Shown: piece after piece, positions 6,291 to 51,490 of the stretch | How the letters are laid out: each line of letters begins with the position of its first letter | Position numbering within the stretch: position 1 is the stretch's first letter | Source of the DNA: Squalus acanthias | Lineage: Eukaryota | Direction: 5' to 3' | Assembly: GCA_030390025.1 (NCBI GenBank) | Contig: CM059432.1 | Location: 41,914,001-41,978,000, forward strand | DNA length: 64,000 nt | Position numbers and translations under genes: made by a program | The notes under the pieces: model-generated | The model's database searches: none | What the model saw: only the letters and a program-made list of their open reading frames with translations | Told to the model about the DNA's origin: nothing

Positions 6291-8279
6291 GTACAGTGGA
6301 ACCTGCATTTTAATTTTTAATGAACAAATTTTAGATTCTCTGAAGTAAAAGACAGTTACTATCTGGCCACTGCTTCCGCTGAACTGAATATATAACTTAA
6401 TTGAGTTGTTGTCATTTGTGACTTTCGGGCAAACATGATTCCTGTTGAAATTGGTTTTTGTTTTAAGTGTTACCAGAAAATAGTTAGCTCTAGTTTACTG
6501 CTTTGGGGTATATTATATTTTGTCTTAACTCAATTGATATAGTTTACAAGATTGTATTCTAACTTTGTTCAGTTTCTTGATTTGATAGGGTTTGAAAGTT
6601 AAATGCTGTTGTCGTCTAGATGGTTTGAAAGTAAACTTGAGTAGTTGAACTTCAGCATGCAGAAGTTCTGCATTAACTTTATTTTTTCACTGTAAAAGGA
6701 TGATTGAGTGAAACCTTTTAAACTACTCGATATCCTGTATAATATTGTGTGTAACTTTTTTTAACTGATGATTTTTTTTTCATTTACCCCAATTCTATTT
6801 AAGGAAACTAGTGGTCATGAGGTAGACTTGTGCTGACCAAATTTTGCTCTGAACATAGTGATGTGCACAATAGAAGTGAACACATACTTTTCCAATAAGC
6901 AAAAATTGGCTTGGAAGTGTACATGCATTGTTGCAATAAGCAAAATCCAGCCTAGGTCAGCAGGTAGAAGTTATTAGACCACAGGGAAACCAATTGACCT
7001 GATAGCATTACAAAAATTAAAATTTTATTTACCCCTTACATAAGTGTCTATTGAAGGAACATTTTCTTAAAATGACATTACAGGTTTCTGAATAAGACGC
7101 AACTTACTTGATGCTCAAAGAGTGGATTTTTGTTCAGTCTCTTGTCAAATGGGGGTATTCATGTTACAGAAGGATAATCAAAAGAAAGTTGCAACATATT
7201 CCCATTTGTTAAAAACATAGGAAGTTATTTACAAAATGCCTGTTTAAGGTTCTGGAGTATGGCAGTGCAATTCCATACCTAAATATTTGAATGCATACGT
7301 GGTCCAGAGTTACCCTCTCTTTAAATGTACCGAATTTGTCCAGTTTGATCCTTGTCAAGAATGACATCAGGAATTTGATTTTGCATTTGTAGGCCTGTTA
7401 ACTTTTAATTAAAAATCTTATATCTTCAAAGCATTTGTGTTTGTTGGAATACATACATTCTGTTGTGTTTGACGGTTAAGACAACTACTTGTCGTTCTGC
7501 AGTAAGCATTTTTCTTTGTAATAGCAAATGCTTGTCATGTCTGAGAATATACTTAAAAGCCATTTAAATGTTTTTTTGTGAAGATCTTACTAAAGATGTC
7601 TGTTTTTATCTGCGATTTATTCTGCATAAGTTTTCTGCTTCATAGTTACCCTCCAAAATGGAACAGTTAACGTACTATGCATTTTCTGATGGGGTTGGGG
7701 GGATATATAGTGCTATTGAAGCACCTAACTTAAGACCCTAGCTAAGTATGAGATTTTCATCTCACAAGCCAATCTATATGGATGTGAAGTGAGCTGACAG
7801 GCATTTCTTGCTAGGCCAGAATATCAAGCTCCGAATAGTTTCTGTTTAAGTTATGGAACACAGCACCACAATCTTAAATTCCAACTACAGGTTTTAAAAG
7901 TTGACACGAGCAGGAAAAACTAGTTTCAAAAGTAATGCCTTCTCTCTGATTACAACCTTTTTGCCCTTGAGGAAGATCAGTGACAACTGGTGTCAGGAAA
8001 CCAACTGCTAGCTCAAATGCAGTGAAGAGTGTTCAAATATAGCTTGGTTGAATTAAAATGTGTATGTATATTTTTATATTGGGTCATCTTGCTGTTGGGT
8101 GATGCCAGAATAATCAGCGATGCTTAGCCATATTTCTTAATGTAGGTTGAAACAAAAAAGTATTCCATCATTTTTGCTAAACAGAGTGAGAATGAGTGAC
8201 ATAAGAACATTTTGGGGCTACAAATGGCCTTTTTTTCATGACAAACTTGGTAGTCTTTTTTATAGAAGTTAGTTTTTTT

Positions 8280-10220
8280 TTAATCATTCTTCGGGATATG
8301 GGTGTTAAGGCTGGCATTTATTTCTCATCCCTAGTTGCCCTTGAGAAGGTGGTGGTGGTGGGCTGCTGCCTTAAGTTGCTGCAGTAAGATATCCTCACAA
8401 TGTTATGTAGGGAGTTACATGATTTTGACCCAGTGACGATAAAGGACGATGATATATGTCCAAGTCAGGATGGTATGTGACTTGGAGGTGATGGTGTTCC
8501 CAAGCACCTGCTGCTCTTGTGCTTCTAGATGATGGAGGTCGTTGGTTTGGAGGGTGCTGCGGGCAAAGCCTTGGCAACTTGCTGTAGTGCATCGTAGATT
8601 GTACACACGGCAGCCATGGTATGCCAGTGACGTAGGAATGGTTGTTTGTGGATGGGATGCCGATCAAGCGGACTGCTTTGTCCTGGCTGCAGCCAGGCTT
8701 TTTGAATGCTGTTGCAGCTGTACCCAACCAGGCAAGTGGAGAGTATGCCATCGCGTTCCTGACTTGTGCCTTTGTAGGTGGAGACTTTGGGGAGTCAGAA
8801 AGTGAGCCACTTGCCGCAGAATACCTGGCCTCTGACTTGCTCTAGTAGCCACAGCATTTATGTGGCTGTTCCCATTGAGTTTCTGGTCAATGGTGACCCC
8901 AAGGATGGTGGGGGACTTGGCGATGGTAAAGCCATTGAATGTCAACGAGAGGTGGTTGGGCTCGCTCTTTGGAAATGGTCATTGCCTGGCACTTGTGTGG
9001 TGTGAATGTTACTTGCCCTTTATCATCGCAAGCCTGGATGTTGTCCAGGTCTTTTTGCATGTTGGCATGGACTGCTTCATTATCTGAGGAATTGCAAACA
9101 GAGCTGAACACTGCAATTACCAGCAAACAGCCCCACTTCTGACCTTTATGATGGAGGGAAGGTCATCGATGGAGCAGATAGTAGGGCTTAGGGTGTTGCC
9201 TTGAGAAACTCCTGCAGCAATGTCCTGGGTGACATGATTGACCTCCAACAACCATCTTCCTTTGTGCCAAATACGATTCCAGCCACTAGAGAGTTTTTTG
9301 CCCTAATCCCATTGACTTCACTTTTACTAGGGCTCCTTGGTGCCACACTCGGTCAATGATGCCTTGAAGTGAAGGGCAGTCATTCTGACCTCACCTCTGG
9401 AATTCAGCTCTTGCTTCCATATTTTGATCAAAGTTGTAACTAGGTCTGGAGTCGAATAGTCCTGGTGGAACCCAAACTGAGCAGGTTATTGGTGAGTTAG
9501 TGCCGCCTGATAGCACAGTTAATGACCCCTTCCATCACTTTGCTTATTGGGCGTAGGCTGATGGGGCGATAATTGGCTGTGTTGGATTTGTCCTGCTTTT
9601 GTGGACAGGGCATACCTGGGCAATTATCACATTGTCAGGTTGATACCGGTGTTGCTATACTGGAACAGCTTGGCTAGTTCTGGAGCACAGGTCTTTAGCA
9701 CCACATCTGAGATGTTGTCAGTGCCCATAGCCTTTGCTGTTTCCAGTGCACTCAGCTGTTTCTTGATGTTACGTGGAGTGAATTGAATTGGCTGAAGACT
9801 GACATCTGTGATGGTGGTGACCTCTGGAGGAGGCCAAGAGTATCATCCACTTGGTAGTTCTGACAGAAAATGGTTGCAAATGCTTCAGTTGTCTTTTGAA
9901 CTCGTGTGCTGGGCTCTGCCATGGTTGTGGATGTTAATAGAGGCTCCTCCTTGCATTAGTTGCTTAATTGTCCACCATTCACGACTGGGTGTGGCAGGGT
10001 TGCAGAGCTTTAACCTGATCCATTCATTGTGGGGATGCTTATCTCTGTCTATAGCATGCTGCTTTTGTTTAACATGCATGTAGTCCTGTGTTGTAGCTTC
10101 ATAAGTTTAACATTTCATTTTCAGGTATGCCTGATGCTGCTCTCAGCATGTTCTTCTACAGTCCTCATTGAACCAGGGTTGGTCACCTACCTTGTTGGAG
10201 TGAGGGATATGCAGGGCCAT
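8280..10220 (-). mobile_element. Degenerate, 5'-truncated copy of the SINE-headed APE-RT LINE family
   Basis: Minus-strand ORF pieces (MTFNGFTIAKSPTILGVTIDQKL; SSDNEAVHANMQKDLDNIQA; SREWWTIKQL) match the ORF at 37532-39490. Confidence 0.85.
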
Positions 10221-12824
10221 GTAATCTTTATACAAAATTTAGTCACACAAGCGCAACTTAAATTTAGGTGGTTTTGATGGGAAAAGGCATAAGAGTCTTT
10301 TCATTAAATTGATGCTGAAAATAGAGATTTTAGGGGATGATGCTGCAAACAACACCTAGTTACATTCACATTTTAGTGGTTTTTTAAAAAAGCCTTTAAA
10401 TGGATTTTGTTAATGTTGTTCTCCACTCAAATCTAATAAATTATGAATATCTTGCCCTGCTGACCAATTACTTTTAATTAAAATTTTTAAAAAGGCACAG
10501 GCCAATCAAGTTTCATTAATTTTGGATACAACCTCTCTTTTCAAAAGTTAGCCTAGCTCACTGGGATGATTTTAAAGAAAATTGGCATGAGGACATTTTA
10601 GTACATCATAACTTTTTTCTTAAATTGGCAGAGAGAATTTCATCCCTCTATGTTGGTTTGTGATCTGTCTTGGATAACAAAGTTCACTCTAAACATAGGT
10701 TAGGGCCTCATGGAGCTTATGATTTCCTTCAAGGGGTTGAAGAGGAATTTTTGACTAGTATACTGAATTCACTACAGGTCTCTGTGGAAGAGGGGAAGGA
10801 ACGGTGGGAAAGCAGAGAGAAGTCCAGTAATAAGTGGAACAAGTATGTATTGGCCTGAAGGTCGTTTCTTATCCTGAGTACATAACAAATTGGACATTTC
10901 TTCAGGAAAATGTAATTTTTGACCGGCTGCACAAACTTAATTCTGAATCGGTATTGTTTGCAAAATTATACATCCCAACATTCAGAACTTGCATCTGATT
11001 TGTTTTGTGCCAAGTAAGACAGGTTAGGTCATGTCTGGTCTTCCGACATTTTGAGCTAAACTATGAACATATAGCCTGTGCAGTCACCTACAAACTTAGT
11101 GCATTAATTAATCATCTTTGCTGATTGTGCAAATGCATGTACTCATGTTCAGAGTGTCTGTTGACACCACTGTTGGCCAATGAGTTGGAGGTGGGGCAGG
11201 ACTTGTGGCAAACAGTCTATTTTACAGCAAACAGACAAAGTCTTTTAAAAAGCGTCTCTACGAACTAGAGAATTCAGAACTTACAGCAACTTCTCCCAAT
11301 AAATGCAAGATGATTTCACCAGCAAAATGCCTGCGTGGAGGATAGTTGCATACAAATTATGTGTGTAAAATCAATCCCAGTCACTTAGAGTAATGTGGTC
11401 TCCAAGCGTGATTGATGGGGAAATTATCCATGTCCATTCTGGTCGGGAATAGTGGTGTCACTATATGCAGCCGTTGATGTTAGCCCCAAGGTGTGTCTCC
11501 CTTTAGGCCCCCCGCCCCAAATATCCTAACTGTGATAACTGCCCAGGTCTTCAGTGGAGTAGCAGAATGATTGTATTATATATCTGTGTGTGACATGCAT
11601 GTATTATATATATGGTCTTGGTAATGAAGGATAGTGCAATATGGACATTTGTTGGCAGTGCATTTATGAAACACGGTTATATTAATGGTGCCTGAACTCA
11701 GTTGGTACTCGGTTTTAGGACTAATTCTTGTCTAAAAATCATATGAAAGTGATAGTAAAACTGCAAGGTTTTTCTATATTGTGAAGTATACACATTGAAA
11801 TGCATTTGGGCAATCTCAGTGGATTTCTTATTGGGTGTGGGCTCCAAAAATTACCTAATTAAGCATTAATTGTCTTTTTTTAAGCGGCCATCGGATGACT
11901 GCTATAGAAATTGTCACACGGGGGGGGTTGCTCTTTTGAGGTTTGGAGCAGAATGAGGGTTTTAATCTGTAGCTAATCTTGCTTTATTTGACCTGGGAGT
12001 ACTTGATGCTGGGTGCCTGAAAAGGAGTATTCCATTTCCCAACACCAGCATAATTTAAATCTATTAGTACAGAATTTACAAAAAATAAGTCACGTGAATT
12101 GGTTCTGGAGAATTGTAGACCTGTTCGCTAAACGTGTGATGGGTTCGGTTTACTTTTTAATCAAAAAAGTAAGATTCTTTCAGAAGATATCACTATCTTT
12201 CACTGTTCATGTTCACACATTTTAAAGTAACTCAAATGATCCCCAATGTTTGTACTTAACATTTTTAATCAAAATATTTTACAAGTGGTTTAACTAGATT
12301 CATACATCGTGTAAAATACTGCACTTAAATCTTGATGGTTTAGTTAAGAATAAATGAAGTATAATTCTGGTGTAGGCTGCTTGTGTGTTTTTGTGTAGTC
12401 TAGTTCCGATATTAAAGGCTTCAATCATGGTAATTATCCCTGCGGTGGAACTAAAGGTCCAGTTAAGGATGCAATCTAGTGTACTACTATGTTTATTAAT
12501 TTAGTTTTGGTATTCCAAATTTGTTATTGACATTCTGAAACTATTCCCAATTCATGTAAAGCACCTTTCCACTATATATACTATAGCGCATAAAAAATAT
12601 ACAGGATGCACATTATCAATAGCGCAATTATTTAAAAATCTCCTGTTTTCTAGTCATATTTATCAGTTAATCCTTCTCATTGCCCTAAAGCTTGCTCTTC
12701 TGAAGTCAAGCATTTTTATGGTTTTTGTCTCGAGTGTATAAATCCCCATGATGATTTCTCTGTGGCTTCACTGTCTACCTATTTACCTTAGACTGAGGGT
12801 CGGTCGCTGTTACCACTTATTAAA

Positions 12825-19693: not shown

Positions 19694-20075
19694 GAGGGTA
19701 CGGTAGCATAGTGGTTATGTTACTGGACTTGCAATCCAGAGGCCTGGACTAATGATCCAGAGACGTGAGTTCAAATCCCACCACAGTAGCTGGGGAATTT
19801 AAAACCCATCTGGTTCACTAATATCCTTTGCTGTCCTTACCCGGTCTGGCCTATATGTGATTCCAGACCCACAGCAATATGGTTGACTCTTAACTGCCCT
19901 CTGAAATGGCCTAGCAAGCCATTCAGTTGTAACAAACCGCTACGAAAAGCAATAAGAATAATAAAACGGGATGGACCACCCGGCATCAACCTAGGCACTG
20001 ACTTTGAACACGACAATGGCACACCCAACCCAGTTGACCCTGCAAAATCCTCCTCATCTGGAGACTTGTACTAAA
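19694..20075 (+). mobile_element. 5' portion of the SINE-headed LINE: intact tRNA-like head, core and ORF start
   Basis: A box TAGCATAGTGG (19704-14), B box GTTCAAATCC (19769-78), core ggttcactaat...ggtctggcctatatgtga, then gaccctgcaaaatcctcctc, which is the start of the APE ORF in the other copies. Confidence 0.8.
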
Positions 20076-20860: not shown

Positions 20861-23800
20861 AAGGCAGCTGGGGAATTTCAATTCAGTTAATTAAATAAAT
20901 CTGGAATAAAAAGCTAGTATCAGTAATGGTGACCATGAAACTTTCAGATTATCGTAAAAACCCATCTGGTTCATTAATGTCCCTTAGGAAAGGAAATCTG
21001 CCGTCCTTACCTGGTCTGGCCTATATGTGACTCCAGACCCACAGCAATGTGGTTAACTCTTAACTGCCCTCTGAAATGGCCAGCAAGCCACACAGTTGTA
21101 ACAAACCACTACGAAAAACAATAAGAATAAAACTGGATGGACCACCTGGCATCGGCTATGGACACAACAATGGCACACCAGTTGACCCTGCAAAGTCCTC
21201 CTCACCAACATCTGGGGACTTGTGCCAAAATTGGGAGAGCTGCCCCACAGACTAGTCAAGCAACAGCCTGACATAGTCATACTCACAGAATCATACCTTT
21301 CAGCCAATGTCCCAGACTCCTCCATCACCATCCCTGGGTATGTCCTGTCCCGCTGGCAGGACAGACCCACCAGAGGTGGTGGCATAGTGGTATACAGTCG
21401 GGAAGGAGCAGCCCTGGGTGTCCTCAACATTGACTCCAGACCCCATGAAGGCTCATGGCTTCAGGTCAAGCAAAGGCAAGGAAACCTCCTGCTGATTACC
21501 ACCCCTCCCTCAGCTGATGATTCAGTACTCCTCCATGTTGAACACCACTTAGAAGAAGCACTGAGGGTAGCAAGGGCACAGAATGTACTCTGGGTGGGGG
21601 ACTTCGATATCCATCACCAAGAGTGGCTTAGTAGCACCACTACTGACCGGGCTGGCCGAGTCCTGAAGGACATAGCTGCCAGACTGGACCTGCGGCAGGT
21701 GGTGAGAGAACCAACACGAGGGAAAAACCTACTTGAAGTCATCCTCCCTGATCTACCTGTCGCAGATGCATCTGTCTATGACAGTATTGGTAGCAGTGAC
21801 CATTGCACAGTCCTTGGAGACCGGGAGCTGAGCGAAAACGGAGAAAAATAAAGAGCACAGCGGCAGAGGAGGCCCAAGACCAGAAGCAGCGAGAGCGTAG
21901 CAAGATAAAGGGCTCAGTGGCAGAGCAGGCCTGAGACCAGAAGCAGCGGGAGCGGAGCAACATAAAGAGTGTGGCGGCACAGCAGGACCGAGACCAGAAG
22001 TAGTAGGAGCTGAGACCAACCAAACACAGGCAGAAATTGAAAGTGACATCAGAGTAAAAAAACACCGGAAGTGACATCAGCACAAGGGAAGGAGCGAGTT
22101 GGTGAGTAGCTGGTGAGTGTCTTTTTTAAAGAGGCATTTAACTTTTTTTTACCCAGTTTCACTGCTTAGTGCAAGTTAGAGTGTGGAAAAAGAAAAAAAC
22201 TAGAAAGCAGATAATATAAATAAATAATGTAAATAATCTAGACTAAGACATGGCAGAGCAGGTTGTGTGTCTGGACTGCAGTATGTGGGAGTTTGTGGAA
22301 AGCAAGACTGTCTCGAGCAGTAGTTGTCTCCGTCTCGAATCTCTCCGGCTCAGAGTCATTGAGTTGGAGTGTGAGTTGGAGACACTCCGACGCATGAGGG
22401 AGGGGGATGAGTAACTGGACTGTTTGCTCCAGACTTCGCTTACACCTCGTAGAGAGGTGCAGGTTCAGAACGGGGTTGGTGTGACTGATAATGTGCAGAG
22501 TATGGGGATCCCAGGTGAGATAGAGAATGAGGATCCACTGAAACTGATCCTATTCAACAGGTACAATGTACTTGCTACCTGTGAGGATAAGGATAAAGAC
22601 TATCGGTAGGACAGCCAGAATGCAAACCATGGCACTTTGGAGCAGGAGGCTGCCCTAAAGGTGCGGGGGAGGGGGGGGGGGGGAGGAGGAGGAGGGGAAG
22701 CGTAATGTGGTAGTTGTAGGGGATTCAATAATTAGGGGGACAGATAGCATCCTTTGTAAGCAAGATCGAGAGTCCCACATAGTATGTTTGTTGCCTATCT
22801 GGTGCCAGGGTGAGGAACATCTCAAACCAGCTTGAAAGGATATTGGAGAGGGTGGGGGTGTGATCCAGTCGTTGTGGTCCATGTTGGGACCAACAACATA
22901 GGGAAGAGTAGGCAAGAGGCAAGAGGTCCTGTTTGGGGAGTACCAGGAACTAGGAGCTAAATTAAAGAACAGGACCTCAAGGGTTATAATCTCTGGATCA
23001 TTACCTGAGTCATGTGCAAACTGGCATAGGGATAAGCTGATTAGGGAGGTGAACATGTGGCTGTGGGAAAGAGGGGTTCCATTTCATGGGGCACTGGCAC
23101 CAGTATTGGAACAGGAAGGAACTGTACCATTGGGACGGGCTCCACCTGAACCGGTCTGGGACCAGGGTCCTAGCAAAAAGGATAAATAGGGCAGTCACAA
23201 GGACTTTAAACTAGTAAATGGTGGTGGGGGGGCTCAAGTGGAAATTGTAGTACAAATAATAGTTCACAAACAAACAAAAGGGAAGTGAGTAGAGTAACAG
23301 TCAGAAATTGTGCTTTAGGCACTACAGGTAAAGGGAAAACTAAAAGATGTAAAGTGATTAAACCAGGAAACAGAAATAAGAAACATGTGAGTAAAACATT
23401 AGAGCTGAAGGACAGGCTAGGGTGTGGCCCAAATAAGCATTCTTTATACAAACGCACGGAGTATAAGGAATGAACTGCAGGTGCAAATTCAACTTGGAGG
23501 GTATGATATGGTAGCCATTACTGAGACATGGCTGCAAGACGGTCAGGACTGGGAACTAAATGTACCAGGTTATAAAGTCTACAGGAAAGATAGGGAAATG
23601 GTGGAGGGGGAGGAGTAACTTTAGCGATTAAGGATGAAATCACTTCATGATAAGAGAGGATGTAACAAGAGGTAAGCAGGCAGTGGAGACTTTATGGGTA
23701 GAATTAAGAAATAGGAAAGGATTTAAGACTGTAGTGGAAGTTGTGTACAGGCCCCCTGGTAGCAGTTGTGAAGTGCGAGATTGTATAACTGCAAAGATTA

Positions 23801-26512: not shown

Positions 26513-28899
26513 GAGATAAACTATTTCCGCTGGTTGGGGAGTCTAGGATTAGGGGGCATAGTCTAAAAATTAGAGCCAGACCTTTTAGGAGTGAAATTAG
26601 GAAACACTTCTACACACAAAGGGTGGTAGAAGTTTGGAACGCTCTTCCGCAAATGGCAATTGATCCTAGATCAATTGTTAATTTTAAATCTGATATTGAT
26701 AGATTTTTGTTAACCAAAAGGTATTAAGGGATATGGGCCAAAGGCAGGCATATGGAATTAGGTCATAGATCAGCCATGATCTCATTGAATAGCAGAACAG
26801 GCTCGAGGGACTAAATGGCTTACTCATGTTCCTAGTGGAGACAAAGTCTCGTCTTCACACTGAGGACACCCTCCATCGTATTGTGTGGCACTACCACTGT
26901 GCTAAATGGGATAGATTCAGAATAGATCTAGCAGCTCAAAACTGGGCATCCATGAGGCGCTGTGAGCTATCAGCAGCAGCAGAATTATATTCCACCACAA
27001 TCTGTAACCTCATGGACCAGCATATCCCTCACTACCATTACCATCAAGCCAGGGGACCAACCCTAGTACAATGAAAAGTGCAGAAGAGCAGCACCAAGCA
27101 TACCTAAAAATGAGGTGCCAACCTGGGAAAGCTGCAACACAGGACTACATGCATGCTAAACAGCAGAAACCGCATGTTTTAGACTGAGTTAAGCGATCTC
27201 ACAATCAACAGATCAGATCAAAGCGCTGCAGTCCTGCCACATCCAGTCGTGAATGATGGTGGACAGCTAAACAACTAACGGGAGGAGGAAGCTCCATGAA
27301 TATCCCCATACTCAATGATGGTGAAGCCCAGCACTTGAGTGCAAAAGACAAGGCTGAAGCGTTTGCAACCATCTTCCGAATGATCCATATCGGCCTTCTC
27401 CTGAGGTCCCAACCATCACAGAAGCCAATCTTCAACCAATTCGATTCACTCCACGTGATATCAAGAAACAGCTAAGCGCACTGGATACATCAAAGGCTGT
27501 GGGCCCTGACAACATCCCGGCTGTCGTGCTGAAGACTTGTGCTCCAGAACAACTTGCACCTCTAGCCAAACTGTTCCAGTACAATTACAACACTGGCATC
27601 CACCTGACAATGTGGAAAACTGCCCAGGTATGTCCTGTCCACAAAAAGCAGGACAAATCCAATCCAGCCAATTACTGCCCCATCAGTTTACTCTCAAAGA
27701 TCAGCAAAGTGATGGAAGGTGTCGTCGACAGTGCTATCAAACGGCACTTACTCACCAATAACCTGCTCACTGATGCTCAGTTTGGGTTCCGCCAGGATCA
27801 CCCGGCTCCAGACCTTGTTACAGCCTTGGTCCAAACATGGACAAAAGAGCTGAATTCAGAGGTGAGGTGAGAGTGACTGGCCTTGACATCAAGGCAGCAT
27901 TTGGCCAAGTTTGGCAGCAAGGAGCCCTAGTAAAATTGAATTCAATGGAAATCGAGAAAATTCTCCACTGGCTCGAGTCAAAGCTAGCACAAAGGAAGAT
28001 GGTTGTGGTTGTTGGAGGCCAAGGCACAAGTCAGGAGTGTGATGGAATACTCTTCACTTGCCTGGATGAGTGCAGCTCCAACAACACTCAAGAAGCTTGA
28101 CAGCATCCAGGACAAAGCAGCCTGCTTGATTGGCACCCTATCCACCACCTTAAAAAACATTCACTTCCTCCACCACCACCACACCATGGCTGCAGTGTGT
28201 ACCATCTACAAGATGCACTGCAGCAACGCGCCAAGGCTTCTTCGACAGCACCTCCCAAACCCGCAACCTCTACCACCTAGGACAAGGGCAGCAGGCACAT
28301 GGAGTTTATCCATATAGTACATGATTGCTCCCCAACTTAAATTTTATTCTTACCATTCAAAATAGTTTGCCACAAATAGATGACAGCACCGTGTGTATAG
28401 TATAGGCATTCTACTGGCAGTAGGGAGGAGTTTTTCGCCACGAGCCAAGGTGTGCCAGCATCAGAAGAGGGCTTAGAAGACATGTCTATCCCTAGAGTTG
28501 TGCATATCGACCACTCATTTTCCTGACAACTTTTATGCCACTGTCTCATTTTACACTTTGCCCGATTTTCTTTACCGTTGATTTCAATGGAAAAGAAAAT
28601 CTAGTCGCGTTTAAACGGGCTTCCAATTCTCTATCGCCCATTTGCGCTACAGCCCAAAATGAATTTCACCCCAATGAACCCCAAACAGGAAGGAGAAATT
28701 GTGATACAAGTAAAGTTGCATATAAATTTCCATAGTCAGCTGAAGTATTAGTGATCTTGATGGAAAACTGTTACACAGCTCTGCTAACAACTCCCAATGA
28801 AGTTAGGAAAGCAGTAAATAAAAGTTTAGATTACAATTCTCTGAAGTTTCAATTAACCCATAGGTCACAGCATAATTTTATGCACTATCATTCAAACAG

Positions 28900-29312
28900 G
28901 AGGGTATGGTAGCTTAGTGGTTATTTTACTGAAGCAGTAATCCAGAGGCCTGGACTAATAATCCAGAGAATGTGAGTTCACAGCCATTTGAGAAAACGAT
29001 TTTTTTTTTTAAAAAGGAAATAAAAAACCAATATAAGTAAAAAAAAAAGTGTCAATGAACCTAATCGGATTGTTGTAAAAACACAATTGGTTCACCAATC
29101 CCCTTTAGGGAAGGAAACCTGTCGTCTTTACCCAGTCTGGCCTATATACCAACACACCACACCAACGTGGTTGATTCTTAACTGCCCTCTGAAGCAAGCC
29201 ACTCAGTTGTATCAACCCGCTACAAAGATTACCATCTTCTCAGGACAATTATGGATGAGCAATAAATGCCGGGCTTGCCAATGATACCTACGTCCTGAGA
29301 ATTAATAAAAAA
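28900..29312 (+). mobile_element. tRNA-derived SINE sharing head, core and 3' tail with the SINE-headed LINE
   Basis: TAGCTTAGTGG A box, gagttcac B-like box, core ggttcaccaatcccctttagggaaggaaacctg, then a direct join to accatcttctcaggacaatt...caataaatgc...aataaaaa, the LINE tail. Confidence 0.8.
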
Positions 29313-34367: not shown

Positions 34368-34469
34368 CCCCGGATGCCTCTTTTTCTGCCTTAACCAATA
34401 TGGTGGGTGGCACACTTACGGCACATAATAAACACATGCACGGCACCCGCCATATTGGATGCATAAGTT

Positions 34470-35610
34470 TTTTTTTAATTCGTTTTATGGGATGTGGGCG
34501 TAGCTGGCAAGGCCAGCATTTATTGCCCATCCCTAATTGCCCTCGAGAAGGTGGTGGTGAGTCGCCTTCTTGAACCACTGCAGTCCGTGTGGTGTTGGCT
34601 AGGGAGTTCCAGGATTTTGACCCAGCGACGATGAAGGATCGGCGATATACTTCTAAGTCAGGATGATGTGTGACTTGGAGGGGAACTTGGAGGTGGTGGT
34701 GTTCCCATGCGTCTGCTGCCCTTGTCCTTCTAGGTGGAAGAGGTCGCGGGTTTGGGAGGTGCTGCAGTGCATCTTGTAGATGGTACACACTGCAGCCACG
34801 GTACACCGGTGGTGGAGGGAGTGGATGTTTAAGGTGGTAGAGGGGTTGCCAATCAAGTGGGCTGCTTTGTCCTGGATGGTGTTGAGCTTCTTGAGTGTTG
34901 TTGGAGCTGCACTCATCCAGGCAAGTGAAGAGTATTCCATCACACTCCTTACTTGTGCCTTGTAGATGGTGGAAAGGCTTTGGGGAGTCAGGAGGTGAGA
35001 CACTCGCCGCAGAATACCTAGCCTCTAACCTGTTCTTGTTGCCACAGTATTTATGTGGTTGGTCCAGTTAAGTTTTGGGTCAATGGTGACCCCCCAGGAT
35101 GTTGATGGTGGGGGATTCTGTGATGGTAATGCCATTGAATGTCAAGGGGCGGTGTTTAGACTCTCGCTTGTTGGAGATAGTCATTGCCTGGCACTTCTGT
35201 GGCGCGAATGTTACCTGCCACTTATCAGCCCAAGCCTGAACATCATCCATGTCTTGTTGCATGCTGTCATGGACTGCTTCATTATCTGAGGAGTTGTGAA
35301 TGGCACTGAACACTGTGCAGTCATGAGTGAACATCCCCATTTCTGACCTTATGTTGGAGGGAAGGTCATTGATGAAGCAGCTGAAGATGGTTGGGCCTAG
35401 GACACTGCCCTGAGGAACTCCTGCAGCGATGTCCTGGGGCTGTGATGATTGACCTTCAATCACCACAACCATCTTCCTTTGGACTAGGTATGACTCCAGC
35501 CAGTGGAGAGTTCCCCCCCCCCCCCCCCCCCCCAATTCCCATTGACTTCAGTTTTACTAGGGCTCCTTCATGCCACACACGGTCAAATGCTGCCTTGATG
35601 TCAAGGGTAG
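34470..35610 (-). mobile_element. 5'-truncated copy of the SINE-headed LINE family (RT to 3' tail)
   Basis: TLHWLESYLVQRKMVVVIEGQSSQPQDIAAGVPQGSVLGPTIFSCFINDLP on the minus strand. Confidence 0.9.
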
Positions 35611-35639
35611 TGATCGTTTTGCACCTGAAAAATGGGGAC

Positions 35640-36286: not shown

Positions 36287-39200
36287 GGGAATGGTAGCAT
36301 AGTGGTTATGTTACTGGACTAGTAAGCAGAGGCCTGGGCTAATGATCCGGAGATCACAGCAGCTGGGGAATTTAAATTCAGTTACTTAAATAAATCTGGA
36401 ATAAAAAGCTAGTATCAGTAATGGTGACCATGAAACTACCGGGTTGTCGTAAAAACCCATCTGGTTCACTAATGTCCTTTAGGGAAGGAAATCTGCCAGT
36501 CCTTACCTGGTCTGGCATATATGTGACTCCAGAGCCACAGCAATACGGTTGACTCTTAACTGCCCTCTGAAATGGCCTAGCAAGCCACTCAGTTGTAACA
36601 AACCGCTACGAAAGCAATAATAATAAAACGGGATGGACCACCCGGCATTAACCTAGGCACCGACTTCGAACACGACAATGGCACACCCAGCTCAGTCGAC
36701 CCTGCAAAGTCCTCCTCACCAACATCTGGGGACTTGTGCCAAAATTGGGAGAGCTGTCCCACAGACTAGTCAAGCAACAGCCTGACATAGTCATACTCAC
36801 AGAATCATACCTTTCAGCCAATGTCCCAGACTCCTCCATCACCATCCCTGGGTATGTCCTGTCCCGCTGGCAGGACAGACCCACCAGGGGTGGCGGCACA
36901 GTGGTATACAGTCGGGAGGGAGCAGCCCTGGGTGTCCTCAACATTGACTCCAGACCCCATGGGCAAGGAAACCTCCTGCTGATTACCACCTACTGCCCTC
37001 CCTCAGCTGATGAATCAGTACTCCTCCATGTTGAACACCACTTGGAAGAAGCACTGAGGGTAGCAAGGGCACAGAATGTACTCTGGGTGGGGGACTTCGA
37101 TGTCCTTAATGTCCACCGTCTTTACCTGGTCTGGCCTATATGTGACTCCAGACCCACAGCAATGTGTTTGACTCTTAACTGCCCTCTGAAATAGCCTAGC
37201 AAGTCCCAGGCGGCACAGTGGTATACAGTCGGGAGGGAGTGGCCCTAGAAGTCCTCAACATTGACTCCGGACCCAATAAAGTCTCATGGCTTCAGGTCAA
37301 GCATGGGCAAACCTCCTGCTGATTACCACCTACCGCGCACCCTCAGCTAATGAATCAGTACTCCTCCATGTTGAACACCACTTGGAAGAAACACTGAGGG
37401 TAGCAAGGGCACAGAATATACTCTGGGTGGGGTCTTCAACATCCATCACCAAGAGTGGCTTGGTAGCACCACTACTGACCGAGCTGGCTGAGTCCTGAAG
37501 GACATAGCTGCCAGACTGGGCCTGTGACAAGGTGGTGAGTGAACCAACAAGAGGGAAAAACCTACTTAACCTCATCCTCACCAATCAACCTGTAGCAGAT
37601 GCATCTGCCCACGACAGCATTGGTAGGAGTGACCACCGCACAGTCCTTGTGGAGACGAAGTCCCATCTTCACACTGAGGACACCCTCCATCGTGTTGTGT
37701 GGCACTACCACAGTGCTAAATGGGATAGATTCAGAACAGATCCAGCAGCTCAAAACTGGGCATCCATGAGGCGCTGTGAGCCATCAGCATCAGCGGAATT
37801 GTATTCCACCACAATCTGTAACCTCAAGGCCCGGCATATCCCTCACTCTACCATTACCATCAAGCCAGGGGACCAAACCTGGTTCAATGAGGAGTGCAGA
37901 AGAGCATTCCAGGGGCAGCATCAGGCGTACCTAAAAATGAGGTGCCAACCTGGGGAAGCTGCAACACAGGACTACATGCACGCTAAACAACGGAAGCAAC
38001 ATGCTATAGACAGAGCTAAGCGATCCCACAATCAACAGATCAGATCAAAACTCTGCAGTGCTGCCACATCCAGTCGTGAATGGTGGTGGACAATTAAACA
38101 ACTAACGGGAGGAGGAGGCTCCATGAACATCCCCATCCTCAATGATGAGGCCCCCACCATCGCAGGAGCCAGTCTTCAGCCAATTCAATTCACTCCACGT
38201 GATATCAAGAAATAGCTGAGCGCACTGGATACAGCAAAGGCTATGGGCCCCGACAACACCCCGGCTGTCATGCTGAAGACTTGTGCTCCAGAACTAGCCG
38301 CGCCTCTAGCCAAGCTGTTCCAGTACAGCTACAACACTGGTATCTACCCAACAATGTGGAAAACTGCCCAGGTATGTCCTGTCCGCAAAAAAGCAGGACA
38401 AATCGAATCCGGCCAATTACTGCCCTATCAGTCTACTGTCAATCATCAGCAAAGTGATGGAAGGCGTCATCGCGCTATCAAGCGGCACTTACTCACCAAC
38501 AACCTGCTCACTGATGCTCAGTTTGGGTTCTGCCAGGACCACTCAGCTCCAGACTTCATTACAGCCTTGGTCCAAACATGAACAAAAGAGCTGAATTCCA
38601 GAGGTGAGGTGAGAGTGACTGCCCTTGACATCAAGGTAGCATTTGAGCGAGTGTGGCATCAAGGAGCCCTCGTAAAATTGAAGTCAATGGAAATCAGAAG
38701 GAAAACACTCCACTGGCTGGAGTCATACCTAGCAAAAAGAAAAATGGTTGTAGTTGTTGGAGGTCAATCATCTCAGCCCCAGGACATCGCTGCAGGAGTT
38801 CCTCAGGGCAGCGTCCTAGGCCCAACCATCTTCAGCTGCTTCATCAATAGCCTTCCCTCCATCATAAGGTCAGAAGTGGGAATGTTCGCTGATGATTGCA
38901 CAGTGTTCAGTTTCATTTGCAATTCCTCAGATAATGAAGCAGTCCATGCCCGAATGCAGCAAGACTAGGATGACATTCAGGCTTGGGCTGCTAAGTGTCA
39001 AGTAACATTCGCGCCACACTAGTGCCAGGCAATGACTATCTCTAACAAGCGAGAGTCTAACTACTTCCCCATGACATTCAACGGCATTACCATCGCCGAA
39101 TCCCCCACCATCAACACCCCGAGGGTAACCATTGACCAGAAACTTAACTGGACCCGCCATATAAATACTGTGGCAACAAGAGCAGGTCAGAGGCTGGGTA

Positions 39201-39779
39201 TTCTGCGGCGTGTGTCTCACCTGACTCCCCAAAGCCTTTCCATCATCTACAAGGCACAAGTCAGGAGTGTGGAATACTCTCCACTTGCCTGGATGAGTGC
39301 AGCTCCAACAACACTCAAGAAGCTCGACACCATCCAGGCCAAAGCATCCCGCTTGATTGGCACCTCATCCACCACCTCAAACATTCATTCTCTCCACCAC
39401 CGGCGCACCATGGCTGCAGTGTGCACCATCTACAAGATGCACTGCAGCAACTCGCCAAGGCTTCTTCGGCTGCACCTCCCAAACCCATGACCTCTACTAC
39501 CTAGGACAAGGGCAGCCGGCGCATGGGAACACCATCATCTGCAAGTTCCCCTCCAAGTTACACACCGTCCTGACTTGGAAATATATCGCCATTCCCCCAT
39601 CGTTGCTGGAACAAAATCCTGGAAGTCCCTCCCTAACAGCACTACGGGAGTACCTTCACCACATGGACTGCAGTGGTTCAAGAAGGCAGCTCACCACCAC
39701 CTTCTCAAGGGCAATTAGGGATGGGCAATAAATGCTGGCGTTGCCAGCAAAGCCCAGAACCCATGAACGAATAAAAAAA
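36287..39779 (+). mobile_element. Near full-length LINE (CR1/L2 group, clade unresolved) with tRNA-derived SINE head and single APE-RT ORF
   Basis: A box at 36295-36305 (B box deleted in this copy), core, APE (KVLLTNIWGL, ILTESYL, WVGDF, SDH), RT (GVPQGSVLGP, FADD), C-terminus SLHHRRTMAAVCTIYKMHC, and 3' tail ending atgaacgaataaaaaaa. Few stops/frameshifts; internal duplication at about 37105-37445. Confidence 0.9.
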
Positions 39780-40081
39780 TAATAATTCCTGCTTTATTTT
39801 AACAGGTATTTTATTATTACTTCCTACAAACTTCTCTGTTCCGAGTATTTATATTGGCTCAAAAATTGTACTCCGCGGCATAGCTCCGGAGTACGCCGCG
39901 GACCTGCGAAAAGAATACGCACCGACCTGATGGGGGCCCTCCTTCGTAAACTTGCTCTCTGACGCTGTGTACTGGAGGGCAGCGTAATGGCCCACGGATT
40001 CCAGAGGCGCAGCCTGTGCGGAAGCGTATCTGGGATCACGTGGGCCTGGTGCTCCAATCACAAAACAGAATTAGATTTTAC

Positions 40082-41089
40082 CCCACCAGCCTCCACATTC
40101 AACGGATCATCCTCCGCCATTTCCGCCACCTCCAGCGTGATCCCACCACCAAACACATCTTCCCCTCACCTCCCCTTTCAGCATTCCGTAGGGACCGCTC
40201 CCTCCGCGACACCCTAGTCCACTCCTCTACCACCCCCAGCACCCCTTCCCCTTCGCCCGGCACCTTCCCGTGCACGCGCAGGAGATGCAACACATGCCCT
40301 TATACCTCCCCTCTTCCCACTGTCCAGGGCCCCAAACACCCCTTCCAGGTGAAACAGCGATTTACTTGTACTTCCTGCAATTTAGTATACTGTATTCGCT
40401 GCTCACGATGTGGACTCCTCTACATTGGGGAGACCAAACGCAGATTGGGTGACCGCTTTGCGGAACACCTCCGTTCAGTCCGTAAGGGGGACCCCGAGCT
40501 CCCGGTGGCCTGTCACTTTAATTCACCGCTTCACTCCCACTCTGACCTCACCGTCCTCGGCCTATTACACTGTTCCACGGAAGCTCAGCGTAAGCTCGAG
40601 GAACAGCACCTCATCTTTCGTTTAGGCACGCTACAGCCCTCTGGACTCAATATCGAGTTCAACAATTTTAGATCATAACCTCAGCTCCAATCACATTTAT
40701 ATTTTATTTTATCCACCCTTTTATTTGTCCCCCCCCACCCTTTTTTTTCCTCCTAGAAGCTGGCAGCTATCCTTCATTCTGCCAGTGGATTTCACACTTC
40801 ATTCAGCCTTAATCTGTCACATTAACACCACCTCTAGCCTTGCATATCTCTTAATGTCTCTTAATGTCTCTTCATCTCCCCCTTTGTTCCTTTATCCCCT
40901 CCCCCTTTTCCCAGCTTTACCCTGGCCTTAAATCTATTTGATTTCCGGCTTTTCTCAGTTCTGATGAAAGGTCATCGACCTGAAACGTTAACTCTCTTTC
41001 TCTCTCCACGGATGCTGCCTGGCCTGCTGAGTTTTTCCAGCGTTTTCTGTTGTTATTTCGGATTTCCAGCATCCGCAGTATTTTGCTAT
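40082..41089 (+). mobile_element. 5'-truncated Penelope-like element (Neptune-like): GIY-YIG endonuclease ORF end plus pLTR
   Basis: Open frame to 40678: GTFPCTRRRCNTC linker, NLVYCIRCSRCGLLYIGETKRRLGDRFAEH (GIY-YIG), GTLQPSGLNIEF. 15-bp TSD agaattagattttac at 40067-81 and 41090-104. Confidence 0.92.
40957..40993 (+). ncRNA. Minimal type I hammerhead ribozyme motif in the PLE terminal repeat
   Basis: AGUU-CUGAUGA-A-AGGUC-AUC-GACCU-GAAA-CGUU-AACU, a perfect consensus core. Confidence 0.85.
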
Positions 41090-46389: not shown

Positions 46390-47545
46390 AATGTAGTATA
46401 TTTGGATTTCCAAAAGGCATTCGATAAGGTGCCACATAAAAGGTTGCTCCACAAGATAAGGGCTCGTGGGGTTGGGGGCAATATATTAGCATGGATAGAA
46501 GATTGGTTAACGGACAGAAAACAGAGAGTAGGGATAAATGGGTCATTTTCCGGTTGGCAGGTTCTAACTAGTGGGGTACCCCCAAGGATCAGTGCTTGGG
46601 CCTCAGCTATTTACAATCTATATTAATGACTTGGATGAAGGGACAGAGTGCATTGTATCCAAGTTTGCTGACGATACAAAGCTAGGTGGGAAAGTAAGCT
46701 CTGAGGAGGACACAAAGAGCCTACAAAGGGATATAGACAGGTTAAGTGAGTGGGCAATAAGGTGGCAGATGGAGTATAATGTGGGAAAATGAGAGGTTAT
46801 TCAATTTGGTAGGAAGAATAGAAAAACAGAATATTTTTTAAATGGTGAGAAACTATGAAATGTTGTTGTTCCGAGAGATTTAGGGATCTTGTACAGGAAA
46901 CATAGGATGTGAGCATGCAGGTACAGCAAGCAATTAGGAAGGCAAATGGCATGTTGGCCTTTATTGCAAGGGGGTAAGGAAGTCTTACTACAATCACACT
47001 TGGCTTTGGTGAGACCACACCTGGAGTACTGTGCACAGTTTTGGTCTCCTTATCTGAGGAAGGACATACTTGCCTTAGAGGCAGTGCAACGAAGGTTCAC
47101 TAGATTGATCCCTCGGATGAGAAGGTTGTCCTATGAGGAGAGATTGAGTAGATTGGTCCTATACTCTCAGGAGTTTAGAAGAATGAGAGGTGATCCCATT
47201 GCAACATAGAAGAGATACTGAGATGTTGTTTCCCCTGGCTGGAGAGTCTAGAACTAGGGAGCATTGTCTCAGATAAAGGGTCGGCCATTTAAGACTGAGA
47301 TGAGGAGGAACTTCTTCACTCACATGGTTGTGAATCTTTGGAATTCTCTACCCCAAAGGGCTGTGGATGCTGAGTCATTGAGTATATTCAAGACTGAGAT
47401 AGATAGATTTTTGGACTCTAGGGGAATCAAGGGATATAGAGATCGGGTAGGAAAGTGGAGTTGAGGTTGAAGATCAGCCATGATCTTATTGAATGGCGGA
47501 GCAGGCTCGAAGGGCCGTATAACCTACTCCTGCTCCTAATTCTTA
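46390..47545 (+). mobile_element. CR1 RT to 3' tail, 5'-truncated
   Basis: VYLDFQKAFDKVPHKRLL, PQGSVLGPQLFTIYINDL, KFADDTKL, plus tail. Confidence 0.9.
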
Positions 47546-47569
47546 ATCACTATAGCCTTAAAAACCTCA

Positions 47570-47720
47570 AAACATAGAAAAATAGGAGCAGGAGTAGGCC
47601 ATTTGGCCCTTCGAGCCTGCTCAGCCATTCAATATCATGGTTGATCCTCTATCTCAATACCATATTCCCACTCTCTCCCCATACCCCTTGATGCCTTTTG
47701 TGTCTAGAATAGAAACATAG
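47570..47720 (-). mobile_element. CR1 3' tail fragment, tail-to-tail with the previous copy
   Basis: aacatagaaaaataggagcaggagtaggccatttggcccttcgagcctgctc. Confidence 0.8.
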
Positions 47721-47852: not shown

Positions 47853-49269
47853 CTATTTTAAGTAAATAAAAAAGAACTTGAGAAATCATTTCACCAAAGA
47901 GAAGCATAGTTTGATGTATCAAAACAGATCTGCTATATGATGTTAAAACAATATCCCTGTTTTATAAAACAGAATTAAATTTTGTCTAATTCAAGTTGTC
48001 CCATAAAATGTGCAATAGACTTTCATACATAAAAACTATTTTAAAATTTTGGCATATATCTCAAACATTCAACATGTATAGCTGACAACAAGGCTAAATT
48101 TAAGTTAAATAAAATTAATGCATGGTGAGTTTCACAGACAATCCCAATTATATAACTTTATACAACATATGTGGCCCTGAACAGCGTATGATACATGTCA
48201 GTTATCTTACACCTGCAGAATATACAATTTATTCATATACAGTGAAACCTGGATCATCCGCATTCCCATTATCTGTAAGAATTGTTGCACGCAATGAGAT
48301 ACTAGCAGGATTTGGGACTGCCAAACATTTTTTTGTTTCAGAGCAAGGTCTGTAAAATTAACCTAACATGAATTACTTTTCCACAAACCAGTGGCAGTTC
48401 AAAGAGGAATCAAAATATAATGCTTATTAAATATTCAGGAAATTTTTAACAATAGCAATTCTATCGCCACAAATGTTCCGAAGCATTCTGCAGGAACAGT
48501 GCAAAAATGATTACTCACTCGTACTACCCAAATGAGCCACTGAAAGTCTTCCAATATAAATTAGAAACAAATAATCCTTCCAAGACCACATCTCAATAAT
48601 CACTTCATTCATTTACGTCTTGTTCAACTAAACAAACTGATGTCATTCTGAATATATCAAGAAGAATTGCATCCAAGCATTCTGAAGTACTAAACACTAC
48701 GCCAAAATCAAAAACTGCCCATCTGTTTATCCTTCACATTAACTTAAATATTGATGCTTATGGCATCAAAACAAAATATGCTCATTACACAACTTGTATT
48801 TAGATAAATCTAAGGGAGTAGAAATTACTTGACATAACTGTTTTACAGTAATGATCCTACGGCAACTATTTTGCTATTGGCTCATAAGGTGGGCAAGGTT
48901 GAGGTGAAATGCACTTTGGCTTTACCCACCAGTTCTTCATCAGTCAACTGATAAAGATATGCATTAGTTGACTCATTAGCATGGTTAGAAATGATTTACC
49001 TCACTGTATAGTAACTCTTGGTCCTACAGACAGAATTTTCAATAACTCTGGAAATGTAAAATTAATGGTCAGTCTTTCAGGGATGCAATGTCAGGCAAAA
49101 ATTTCACCACTTTTAAGGGAAAGGTGAGATTTCGAAAATTTGACGCAAATTTTTTAGAGCAGAATTAAGCAAAATACCATTTAAATAAAAAAAGCCACTA
49201 TAAAAGCATTTAAATTTAGTGCCAGCCAGCAGAAAAACTGAGCTACTTTTCAAATGGTATCCTAGTCCT

Positions 49270-51490
49270 TTTTATTATTCATTCATGGGATGTGGGTGTC
49301 ACTGGCAAGGCCAGCATATCGCCCATCCCTAATTGCCCTCGAGAAGGTGGTGATGAGCCACCTTCTTGAACCACCGCAGTCCGCGTGGTGAAAGTACTCC
49401 CAACAGTGCTGTTAGGGAAGGAGTTCCAGGATTCTGACCCAGCGACGATGAAGGGATGGCGATGTATTTCCAAGTCAGGATAATGTGTGGCTTGAAGGGG
49501 AACTTGCAGCTGGTGGTGTTCCCATGCGCCTGCTGCCCTTGTCCTTTTAGGTGTTAGAGGTCGTGGGTTTGGGAGGTGCTGTCGAAGAAGCCTTGGCGAG
49601 TTGCCACAGTGCATCTTGTAGATGGTACACGCTGCAGCCATGGTGCGCCGGTGGTGGAGGGAGTGAATGTTTAAGGTGGTGGATGGGATGCCAATCAAGC
49701 AGGCTGCTTTGTCCTGGATGGTGTCGAGCTTCTTCAGTGTTGTTGGAGCTGCACTCATCCAGGCAAGTGGAGAGTATTCCATCACACTCTTGACTTGTGC
49801 CTTGTAGATAATGGAAAGGCTTTAGGGAGTCAGGAGGTGAGACACTCACTGCAGAATACCCAGCCTCTGACTAGCTCTTGTAGCCACAGTATTTATGTGG
49901 CTGGTCCAGTTAAGTTTTCAGTCAATGGTGACCTCCAGGATGTTGATGGTGGGGGATTCAGCAATGGTAATCCCACTGAATGTCAAGGGGAGGTGGCTAG
50001 ACTTTCTTGTTGGAGATGGTCATTGCCTGGCACTTGTGCGGCGCGGTGTCACTTGCCACTTATCAGCCCAAGCTTGAATGTTGTCCAGGTCTTGCTGCCT
50101 CTGGGCATGGAATACTTCATTATCTGAAGAGTTGTGAATGGAACTGAACACTGTGCAATCATCAGCAAACATCCCCACTTCTGACCTTATGATGGAGGGA
50201 AGGTCATTGATAAAGCAGCTGAAGATGGTTGGGCCTGGGACACTGCCCTGAGAAACTCCTGCAGCGATGTCCTGGGGCTGAGATGGTTATCCTCCAACAA
50301 CCACAACCATCTTCCATTGTGCTAGATATGACTCCAGCCGATTCCCATTGACTTCAATTTTGCTAGGGCTCCTTGATGCCACACTCGGTCAAATGCTGCC
50401 TTTATGTCAAGGCCAGTCACTCACCTCACCTCTAGAATTCAACTCTTTTGTCCATGTTTAGATCTGGAGTGGAGTGGTCCTGGCAGAACCCAAACTGAGC
50501 ATCGGTGAGCAGCTTATTGGTGATTAAGTGCCATTTAATAGCACTGTCGATGACACCTTCCATCACTTTGCTGATGATTGAGAGTAGACTGATGGGGCGG
50601 TAATTGGCCGGATTAGATTTGTCCTGCTTTTTTTGGACAGGATATACCTGGGCTATTTTTCACTTTGTCGGGTAGATGCCAGTGTTGTAGCTGTATTGGA
50701 ACAGCTTGGCTAGAGGCACGGCTAGTTCTGGAGTACAAGTCTTCAGCACGACAGCCGGGATGTTGTCGGGGCCCACAGCCTTTGCTGCATCCTGTGCGCT
50801 CAGCCGTTTCTTGATATCACGTGGAGTGAATCTAATTGGCTGAAGACCGGCTTCTGTGATGGTGGGGACCTCAGGAGGAGGCCGAGATGGATCATGCACT
50901 CGGCACTTTTGGCTGAAGATGTTTGCAAACACTTCAGCCTTGTCTTTTGCACTCACGTGCTGGGCTCCGCCAATCTTTGAGGATGAGGATATTCATGGAG
51001 CCTCTTCCTCCCGTTAGTTGTTTAATTGTCCACCACCATTCACGAATGGATGTGGCAGGACTGCAGAGCTTTGATCTGATCGGTTGGTTGTGGGATCACT
51101 TAGGTCTGTCTATAGCATGCTGCTTCTGCTGTTTAGCATGCACGTAGTCCTGTTTTGTAGCTTCACCAGGTTGGCACCTCATTTTTAGGTACGCCTGGTG
51201 CTGCTCCTGGCATGCTCTTCTACACTCCTGATTGAACCAGGGTTGTTCCCCTGGCTTGATGTTAATGGTAGAGTGAGTGATATGCCAGGCCATGAGGTTA
51301 CAGATTGTGGTGGAATAAAATTCTGCTGCTGATGATGACCCACAGCGCCTCATGGATGCCCAGTTTTGAGCTACAGCTGTTCTGAATCTATCCCATTTAG
51401 CACGGTGGTAGTGCCACACAACATGATGGAGGGTGTCCTCTGTGTGAAGACGGGACTTCGTCTCCACAAGGACAGTGTGGTGGACCACAG
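49270..51490 (-). mobile_element. 5'-truncated copy of the SINE-headed LINE family
   Basis: HTVLVETKSRLHTEDTLH...; GPDNIPAVVLKTC; EYSPLAWMSAAPTTLKKLD; 3' tail. Confidence 0.9.

Follow-up and report, generated by a model that had tools for sequence, protein, structure and literature searches.

The window analysed here, a stretch of 64,000 nucleotides from Squalus acanthias, carries at 36287-39779 a LINE copy whose sense strand seems to avoid runs of four or more T, the word at which vertebrate RNA polymerase III (Pol III) terminates. LINEs are usually regarded as Pol II units and SINEs as Pol III units, and a sequence-only reading of the window cut across this division: it took the missing T runs as selection for Pol III read-through of a coding transcript of about 3.3 kb, and as independent support for a Pol III model. 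This locus raises the question of whether the absence of one short word can tell which polymerase makes the RNA of a retrotransposon, or whether other features of the element have to carry such a claim.

The copy at 36287 and its family

The features of the copy and of its relatives in the window are collected in Table 1. The copy is 3493 nt long (20.6% T) and reaches 3.5 kb only through an internal duplication, with ~97 nt absent from its frame at 38146/38147; with its B box deleted, its internal duplication, its deletions and its stops, it is dead. Its A box was recognized by the A-box pattern, and no terminator stands ahead of its A tail (39719..39779). Right behind the element, 39950-40678 (+) gives a weak GIY-YIG match (22.5 bits, cut-off 22.6) and is probably a Penelope-like element. 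Elsewhere in the window, an open frame of 748 codons without introns occupies 4044-6290 (+); it encodes four RRM domains (PF00076) and represents a host gene, a large exon or a retrocopy. A near-perfect inverted repeat at 47499-47622, with chance miRNA-family matches below cut-off, lies between two opposed repeat-tail copies.

Table 1. Features of the copy at 36287-39779 and of related copies in the window
Feature	Position	Strand	Basis or remark
Near-full-length but decayed copy of an ORF1-less APE-RT LINE, elasmobranch Zenon type	36287..39779	+	~7.5% from family majority
tRNA-like head; 5' end of element at 36287	36287..36362	+	alignment; ARAGORN on family loci
A box (TAGCATAGTGG), starting at element base 9	36295..36305	+	
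Site of ~17-nt deletion, B box thereby gone from this copy	36354..36355	+	alignment
Body common to the 440-nt SINE, with several upstream AUGs inside	36363..36612	+	Deu-like by eye only
Start of single frame, APE endonuclease (PF03372), no in-frame AUG ahead	36652..37115	+	
Rearrangement specific to this copy: repeat of 36499-36584, then of ~36892-37105	37116..37432	+	
Remainder of frame, interrupted by stops and deletions	37209..39718	+	stop codon 39716-39718
RT domain (PF00078)	within 38582-38968	+	domain match
3' UTR, AATAAA at 39727-39732, A7 tail; common to the SINE	39719..39779	+	
First flank T4, 17 nt past the A tail; predicted Pol III stop	39797..39800	+	
Old SINE copy, head and body fused directly onto the same tail as the LINE	28902..29312	+	
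5' piece of a further Zenon-type copy, B box intact	19696..20075	+	Rfam tRNA match 19703-19782
Old 3' copy, 1 sense T4 (9867)	8273..10221	-	79% to majority
Sister copy, 5' part, resuming at 26830-28302; 1 sense T4 at 27177	20864..21821	+	
Sister copy, 3' part, 0 sense T4	34468..35611	-	
Sister copy, 3' two thirds, 1 sense T4 (51317)	49269..51483	-	

A genome search with 36500-36900 returned 4083 candidates, of which 40 were scored and the 39 besides the window retrieved; head, frame and tail are present together in most of these 39 loci, and first-look candidates for the family number 4083 and 12213 in the 3.7-Gb genome. The majority sequence of 25 copies is 3316 nt long and holds one stop-free 973-codon frame encoding APE and RT, which PF03372 and PF00078 both match; it has no ORF1, with only 329 nt upstream of the frame, and it ends in an A tail that is mostly ~A5-A10 among the 94 3' ends examined. 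This majority was compared with a pile-up of 124 aligned pieces (207 kb, median depth 64), and the two differ at 6 places. The copy at 8273-10221, 84% identical to its best match elsewhere, is unusually old or fast-decayed; its placement in a separate older subfamily was rejected, the 29 other retrieved loci being the main family.

By eye over the first 400 nt, and by length (3314 nt for the published element), the family appears to match SquAca_Zenon-1 of supplementary table 2 in PMC13343379, with which it also shares the lack of ORF1, the APE-RT frame and the poly-A tail; we take the two to be the same family. Zenon elements are described there as ORF1-less and poly-A tailed, occur in elasmobranchs, coelacanth and hagfish, and are assigned to the CR1 group (PMC13343379). 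An RT tree that included no named Zenon protein set the family apart from the CR1 and L2 elements of S. acanthias with a support of only 0.64. In the main text of the Zenon paper the words 'tRNA' and 'promoter' have 0 hits each, and neither the head nor the loss of T runs is described there (PMC13343379).

The frame of the family evolved under purifying selection. Among variants at a frequency of at least 15%, 35 were synonymous, 19 were not and 0 were stops (35/54 synonymous), as compared to 375/1667 synonymous (22%) among variants seen in a single copy (P 9e-11).

The tRNA-like head and its SINE partner

The family, as distinct from the 36287 copy, has A and B boxes in a tRNA-like 5' end, the A box at base 9 and the B box near base 72; the B-box region is retained in 6/7 aligned sequences, the 36287 copy being the exception. 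The head folds cloverleaf-like, and no special fold of the family 5' UTR was seen (z -0.84). ARAGORN at default settings calls the head a tRNA in 3/29 loci, while calls under relaxed settings (-ps90) were left uncounted because these also place tRNAs inside 3/9 RTE loci; the Rfam tRNA match at 19703-19782 scores 28.8 bits (cut-off 29). The element begins with the head: of the 72 alignments starting within the first 130 nt, 27 extend to base 1 and are preceded by unrelated flanks (15 LINE copies, 11 SINE copies and 1 fragment), and these loci, having been selected for 5' sequence, show the boundary of the element and not the share of full-length copies. With regard to target-site duplications, matches of 4-6 nt were seen in 3/9 full-length copies, with no pattern.

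The published elasmobranch consensus sequences point the same way. The supplement of PMC13343379 gives 7 Zenon rows from elasmobranchs (5 species codes). Judged by eye, every one of these opens with the head, the A and B boxes are conserved across sharks and ray with differing sequence between them, and no T4 occurs in the first 400 nt displayed. The Zenon sequences of the four elasmobranchs other than S. acanthias are stated to exceed 84% identity. Three hagfish and coelacanth rows, of uncertain orientation and 5' ends, are head-less and contain runs of T4 or longer (by eye, PMC13343379).

The head is shared with a 440-nt SINE (majority of 19 copies), which consists of LINE bases 1-343 followed directly by 3216-3315 (91% identity) and whose tail contains the last codons of the Zenon frame. 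Compared by description and not by sequence, this SINE fits SacSINE1 (PMC5499810); SacSINE1 and LmeSINE1 are Deu-SINEs with a tRNA head, a body and a LINE-type tail, of which copies of up to 425-463 bp have been described (PMC5499810, PMC4824008, PMC3747384), and two short blocks of the body common to SINE and LINE resemble, by eye, the supplementary Deu alignment of PMC7245038. The passages of those papers on the tail donor name L2-2_CM or CR1-4_DR-like elements, whereas the SINE here ends in Zenon frame codons. The LINE itself is unlike the Deu-SINEs in that it comprises all of the 5' 343 nt together with a frame of 973 codons and is neither short nor non-coding.

At base 115 of the SINE majority, 7/19 copies have a T5, which is probably drift at a T/A boundary, and about 17/94 family 3' ends (counted by eye) have T>=4 directly before the A tail, which looks like post-insertion drift. 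A terminator at the family 3' end of the kind found in T+ SINEs was rejected, as the most frequent end shows just one T, and the length of T plus A is roughly constant. In old copies more generally (the 94 3' ends; SINE base 115), T runs at T/A boundaries mimic terminators while the total length stays roughly constant.

Runs of four or more T

The counts behind the original claim were right. Runs of T>=4 are absent from the sense strand of 36287-39779, and runs of A>=4 number 17, where more than a dozen had been stated; about three sense T4 runs had been reported in the sister copies, and there are 3 across five stretches, each (9867, 27177, 51317) at a site where the family majority is non-T, in line with the proposal that they arose by later change. 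The neighbouring CR1 element (24600-26330) does carry sense T runs, 5 in all (24845, 25133, 25360, 25430, 26309); as a control it is unfair, CR1 being richer in T. The contrast between A4 and T4 is mostly base composition, the A4 count standing at 17 as compared to 16.4 expected. A check of the consensus, which had been proposed, found 0 T4 inside the element (25-copy majority; 124 aligned pieces).

How surprising this is depends on the null. For the 36287 copy, the absence of T4 has P = 0.007 under base shuffling and 0.085 under dinucleotide shuffling; for the majority, the corresponding values are 0.013 and 0.17, with 0.10-0.11 under codon shuffling, where shuffles of the majority frame have a mean of 1.9 T4 runs. 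The outcome named alongside the claim as one that would refute it, shuffled controls that often lack T4 as well, was partly observed: 10-11% of codon shuffles lack T4, and about 30% do so after calibration on other S. acanthias LINEs. In this calibration the codon-shuffle null was tilted to the TTT shortfall (about a quarter) of L2, CR1 and RTE, and a harsher tilt was also tried; P(no T4) becomes 0.30, with a range of 0.30-0.41 over the calibrations.

The T4-free state of the 36287 copy is itself unremarkable, because T4 is also missing from half of the copies simulated at the age of the family. Over all copies there are 37 T4 in 203.6 kb, or 0.6 per 3.3-kb element, as compared to 0.68 simulated by neutral mutation; since copies have gained T4 at the neutral rate, the loss of T runs belongs to the source lineage. 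Variants that make a T4 are 0/94 among those shared by at least 4 copies and 19/1072 among rarer ones, too few to count. The absence of T4 by itself is weak evidence for Pol III, and the T4 count alone should not be cited as proof of it.

Finer T-rich words

Interrupted T4/T5 runs such as TCTTT and TATTT stop human Pol III, and TTT alone is nearly inactive (PMC3141230, PMC8466645, in the parts dealing with termination). The family majority contains 0 TVTTT, 0 TTTVT and one TTCTT. Under codon shuffling of the majority frame, T4 and TVTTT together number 0 as compared to 3.5 expected (P 0.013), TTT numbers 5 as compared to 13.3 (P 0.002) and is the most depleted of the 64 trimers, and windows with T at four of five positions number 1 as compared to 9.4 (P 0.004-0.007). 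The same windows for A, C and G stand at 0.98, 1.20 and 0.85 of expectation, and the loss of T words is spread through all three thirds of the frame. After the tilt the values are P = 0.058 (T4 plus TVTTT), 0.03 (TTT) and 0.019 (4-of-5-T windows), and after the harsher tilt 0.098, 0.082 and 0.033, respectively; several overlapping T-word statistics were tried.

On the opposite strand T runs are normal (A4 13 vs 10.3 expected in the majority frame), which rules out avoidance of self-insertion. Avoidance of Pol II poly(A) and splice signals as the cause was likewise dismissed, since the majority shows no depletion of either poly(A) signals or splice-like words.

Synonymous T is used at 42/167 isolated sites but at 2/44 sites where it would make a run of at least 3 (P 0.0016), with 15/62 for TT sites within a codon and 6/53 for TT sites at codon junctions. 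As junction TT making a run of only 2 is also low (P 0.036) and indistinguishable from longer runs (P 0.29), the loss of T is not confined to true terminators; nor is TTT loss directly predicted by Pol III, because plain TTT hardly terminates. With the TT count held fixed the signal vanishes (P 0.14-0.73), in a null that absorbs the signal by construction. Phe makes up 1.85% of the family frame, with 2/53 relatives at or below this value, and there is no excess loss of conserved Phe (10/16 kept; mean 12.4, minimum 7).

The finer T-word loss is moderate evidence for Pol III. We infer a likelihood ratio in favour of Pol III of ~3-9 from T4 alone and ~10-20 from the finer T words. The proposal that the missing T4 reflects selection for Pol III read-through holds up by way of the T-rich words and the head, and not by way of T4 alone; the further claim of independent support goes too far, as the T-word evidence is modest and no independent proof.

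Other LINE families

Comparison with other LINEs of the genome, another of the proposed checks, cuts both ways. The L2 majority (8 copies) has 8 runs of T>=4 in 2999 nt and the CR1 majority (12 copies) 7 in 3862 nt, as the claim would have it; the RTE majority (9 copies, 17% T, no tRNA head) has only 1 in 3480 nt. A nearly T4-free state can thus be reached without a head by an element that is poor in T. The same RTE has 5 TVTTT, 15 TTT and 16 4-of-5-T windows, as compared to 0, 8 and 1 in the Zenon-type family. L2, CR1 and RTE all fall about a quarter below their own shuffles for TTT. Run-making synonymous T in RTE, at 4/44, is not far from the 2/44 of the Zenon-type family, and a drop in such T was seen in none of L2, CR1, RTE or 45 pooled outside frames. 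Codon shuffling overstates T runs elsewhere too: 4-of-5-T windows in CR1 have P 0.01-0.015, and the host RRM frame has 7 T4 vs 12 expected (P 0.014).

The outside frames come from 80 metagenome LINE loci, of which 45 were kept and 35, without a 500-codon open frame, were dropped. Each has at least 5 T4, and their TTT ratio is 0.73-1.19 vs 0.38 in the Zenon-type family, in frames that are richer in T (22-37%) than the Zenon-type frame (19%). In the closest full-length head-less relative (L160), an A-tailed element at 37% identity that lacks a long upstream frame, the frame contains 20 T4. For an L1 poly-A comparison, PF02994 gave no match, in the positive control as well, which makes the comparison uninformative, and two scans of viral contigs found no relatives.

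We note two further features of the comparison families. The RTE family (L270-L278) has a 5' array of GC-rich tandem units, and its lone run of T>=4 lies near the end of the frame; an abundant L2-type family (L040-L069, L279-L286) has a 902-codon majority frame and 6034 candidates.

Discussion

Head and finer T words together suggest that Pol III probably makes the RNA that is copied from the source elements of this family. TFIIIC would bind the A and B boxes, and Pol III would start at base 1, transcribe the 3.3-kb element together with its A tail and stop at the first T4 of the flank (39797 in the 36287 copy); this full-length RNA would be the template for target-primed reverse transcription by the element's own APE-RT. 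Source elements that acquired T4 or TVTTT would have lost their full-length RNA, and such words would have been purged. The missing ORF1 would fit this Pol III model: as outlined in PMC2666806, ORF2p alone suffices for the retrotransposition of Pol III RNAs.

The least certain step is translation, for the same uncapped RNA would have to be translated without AUG via a cap-independent route; alternatively, Pol II read-through of the same loci might supply the protein. The leader has 8 AUGs in 329 nt, and none of the AUGs upstream of codon 287 is in frame. According to older reports, RNA made by Pol III can be translated, and the human L1 promoter was reportedly once claimed to be Pol III dependent. 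An out-of-frame AUG just before APE is present, by eye, in 6/7 elasmobranch rows of the supplement of PMC13343379 vs 21/56 copies here. This AUG (family bases ~355-360; near 36620-36630 in the window) lies in a short frame that overlaps the start of APE in one copy (L001:3044-3274); it is possible that the short frame acts as a mini-ORF or a frameshift entry. Taken as a whole, elasmobranch Zenon may be an autonomous coding Pol III retrotransposon that took a SINE head, dropped ORF1 and the need for AUG, purged its terminators and has its uncapped RNA translated, a chain of steps to which we give slightly less than even chances.

Several other explanations have to be weighed against Pol III transcription. 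The frame may simply be poor in T (19%) and Phe and be transcribed by Pol II, with the head a captured SINE serving as 5' UTR or Pol II promoter. This would agree with an RTE of the same genome that is almost T4-free by composition, with calibrated P values of 0.3-0.4 for the absence of T4 and with a Phe content that only 2/53 relatives equal or undercut, and translation would be easier from a capped RNA; yet that RTE retains its TVTTT, TTT and 4-of-5-T windows, calibrated P for the finer T words is 0.02-0.06, the two boxes are kept across sharks and ray in the published rows (by eye) where the sequence between them differs, and the 8 AUGs of the leader would be an obstacle to cap-dependent scanning as well. 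We consider composition and chance an unlikely explanation.

Alternatively, an RNase P-type cut at the tRNA-like fold might free the element from an extended transcript made by Pol II, much as R2 elements are released by their 5' ribozyme. The boxes would then be maintained because they form D and T loops, and the T runs would have been lost for some other cause. The exact 5' end close to tRNA base 1, the lack of an AUG start and the cloverleaf-like fold would all suit such a processing signal, which we nonetheless hold to be improbable. A slightly smaller chance still falls to avoidance of U runs at the RNA level, owing to pairing with the element's own A tail, mispriming at insertion or the sensing of U-rich RNA. 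The family is A-tailed, unlike CR1 and L2 (PMC13343379, in its description of the group), some copies are internally inverted, and the loss reaches TTT and junction TT, all of which avoidance at the RNA level would accommodate; against it, L160 is A-tailed and yet has normal T4 numbers, and other LINE RNAs of the same host show far less loss.

With regard to known systems, one parallel is lepidopteran Zenon and its internally deleted derivative Persaeus, where a single-frame poly-A Zenon likewise has a short derivative made of its 5' and 3' parts; Persaeus differs in that, as described in PMC6740152, it contains part of the Zenon 5' UTR but shows neither similarity to tRNA nor a Pol III promoter. 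SINEs that are transcribed by Pol III and mobilised by ORF2p alone, Alu among them (PMC2666806; PMC8466645 for the T+ and T- classes), resemble the family in their internal A/B-box promoter, in having no terminator ahead of the A tail and in not needing ORF1p; they differ in being short and non-coding, as compared to 3.3 kb encoding APE-RT. In the literature covered (titles and openings of abstracts, with few subscription papers), neither a Pol III-transcribed autonomous LINE nor a tRNA head on Zenon was described; the family is known, and its architecture was not found described.

The abundance of the family, and the presence of the head in five published elasmobranch consensus sets, mean that existing RNA methods can settle the Pol III question. 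The case would test a proposal, put forward in PMC2666806, that the polymerase decides whether ORF1p is needed, and it would inform the question of how the heads and bodies of SINEs are exchanged with LINEs. If true, a natural coding Pol III transcript of 3.3 kb would break the division of polymerases between LINEs and SINEs, and Pol III RNA would be translatable in a vertebrate.
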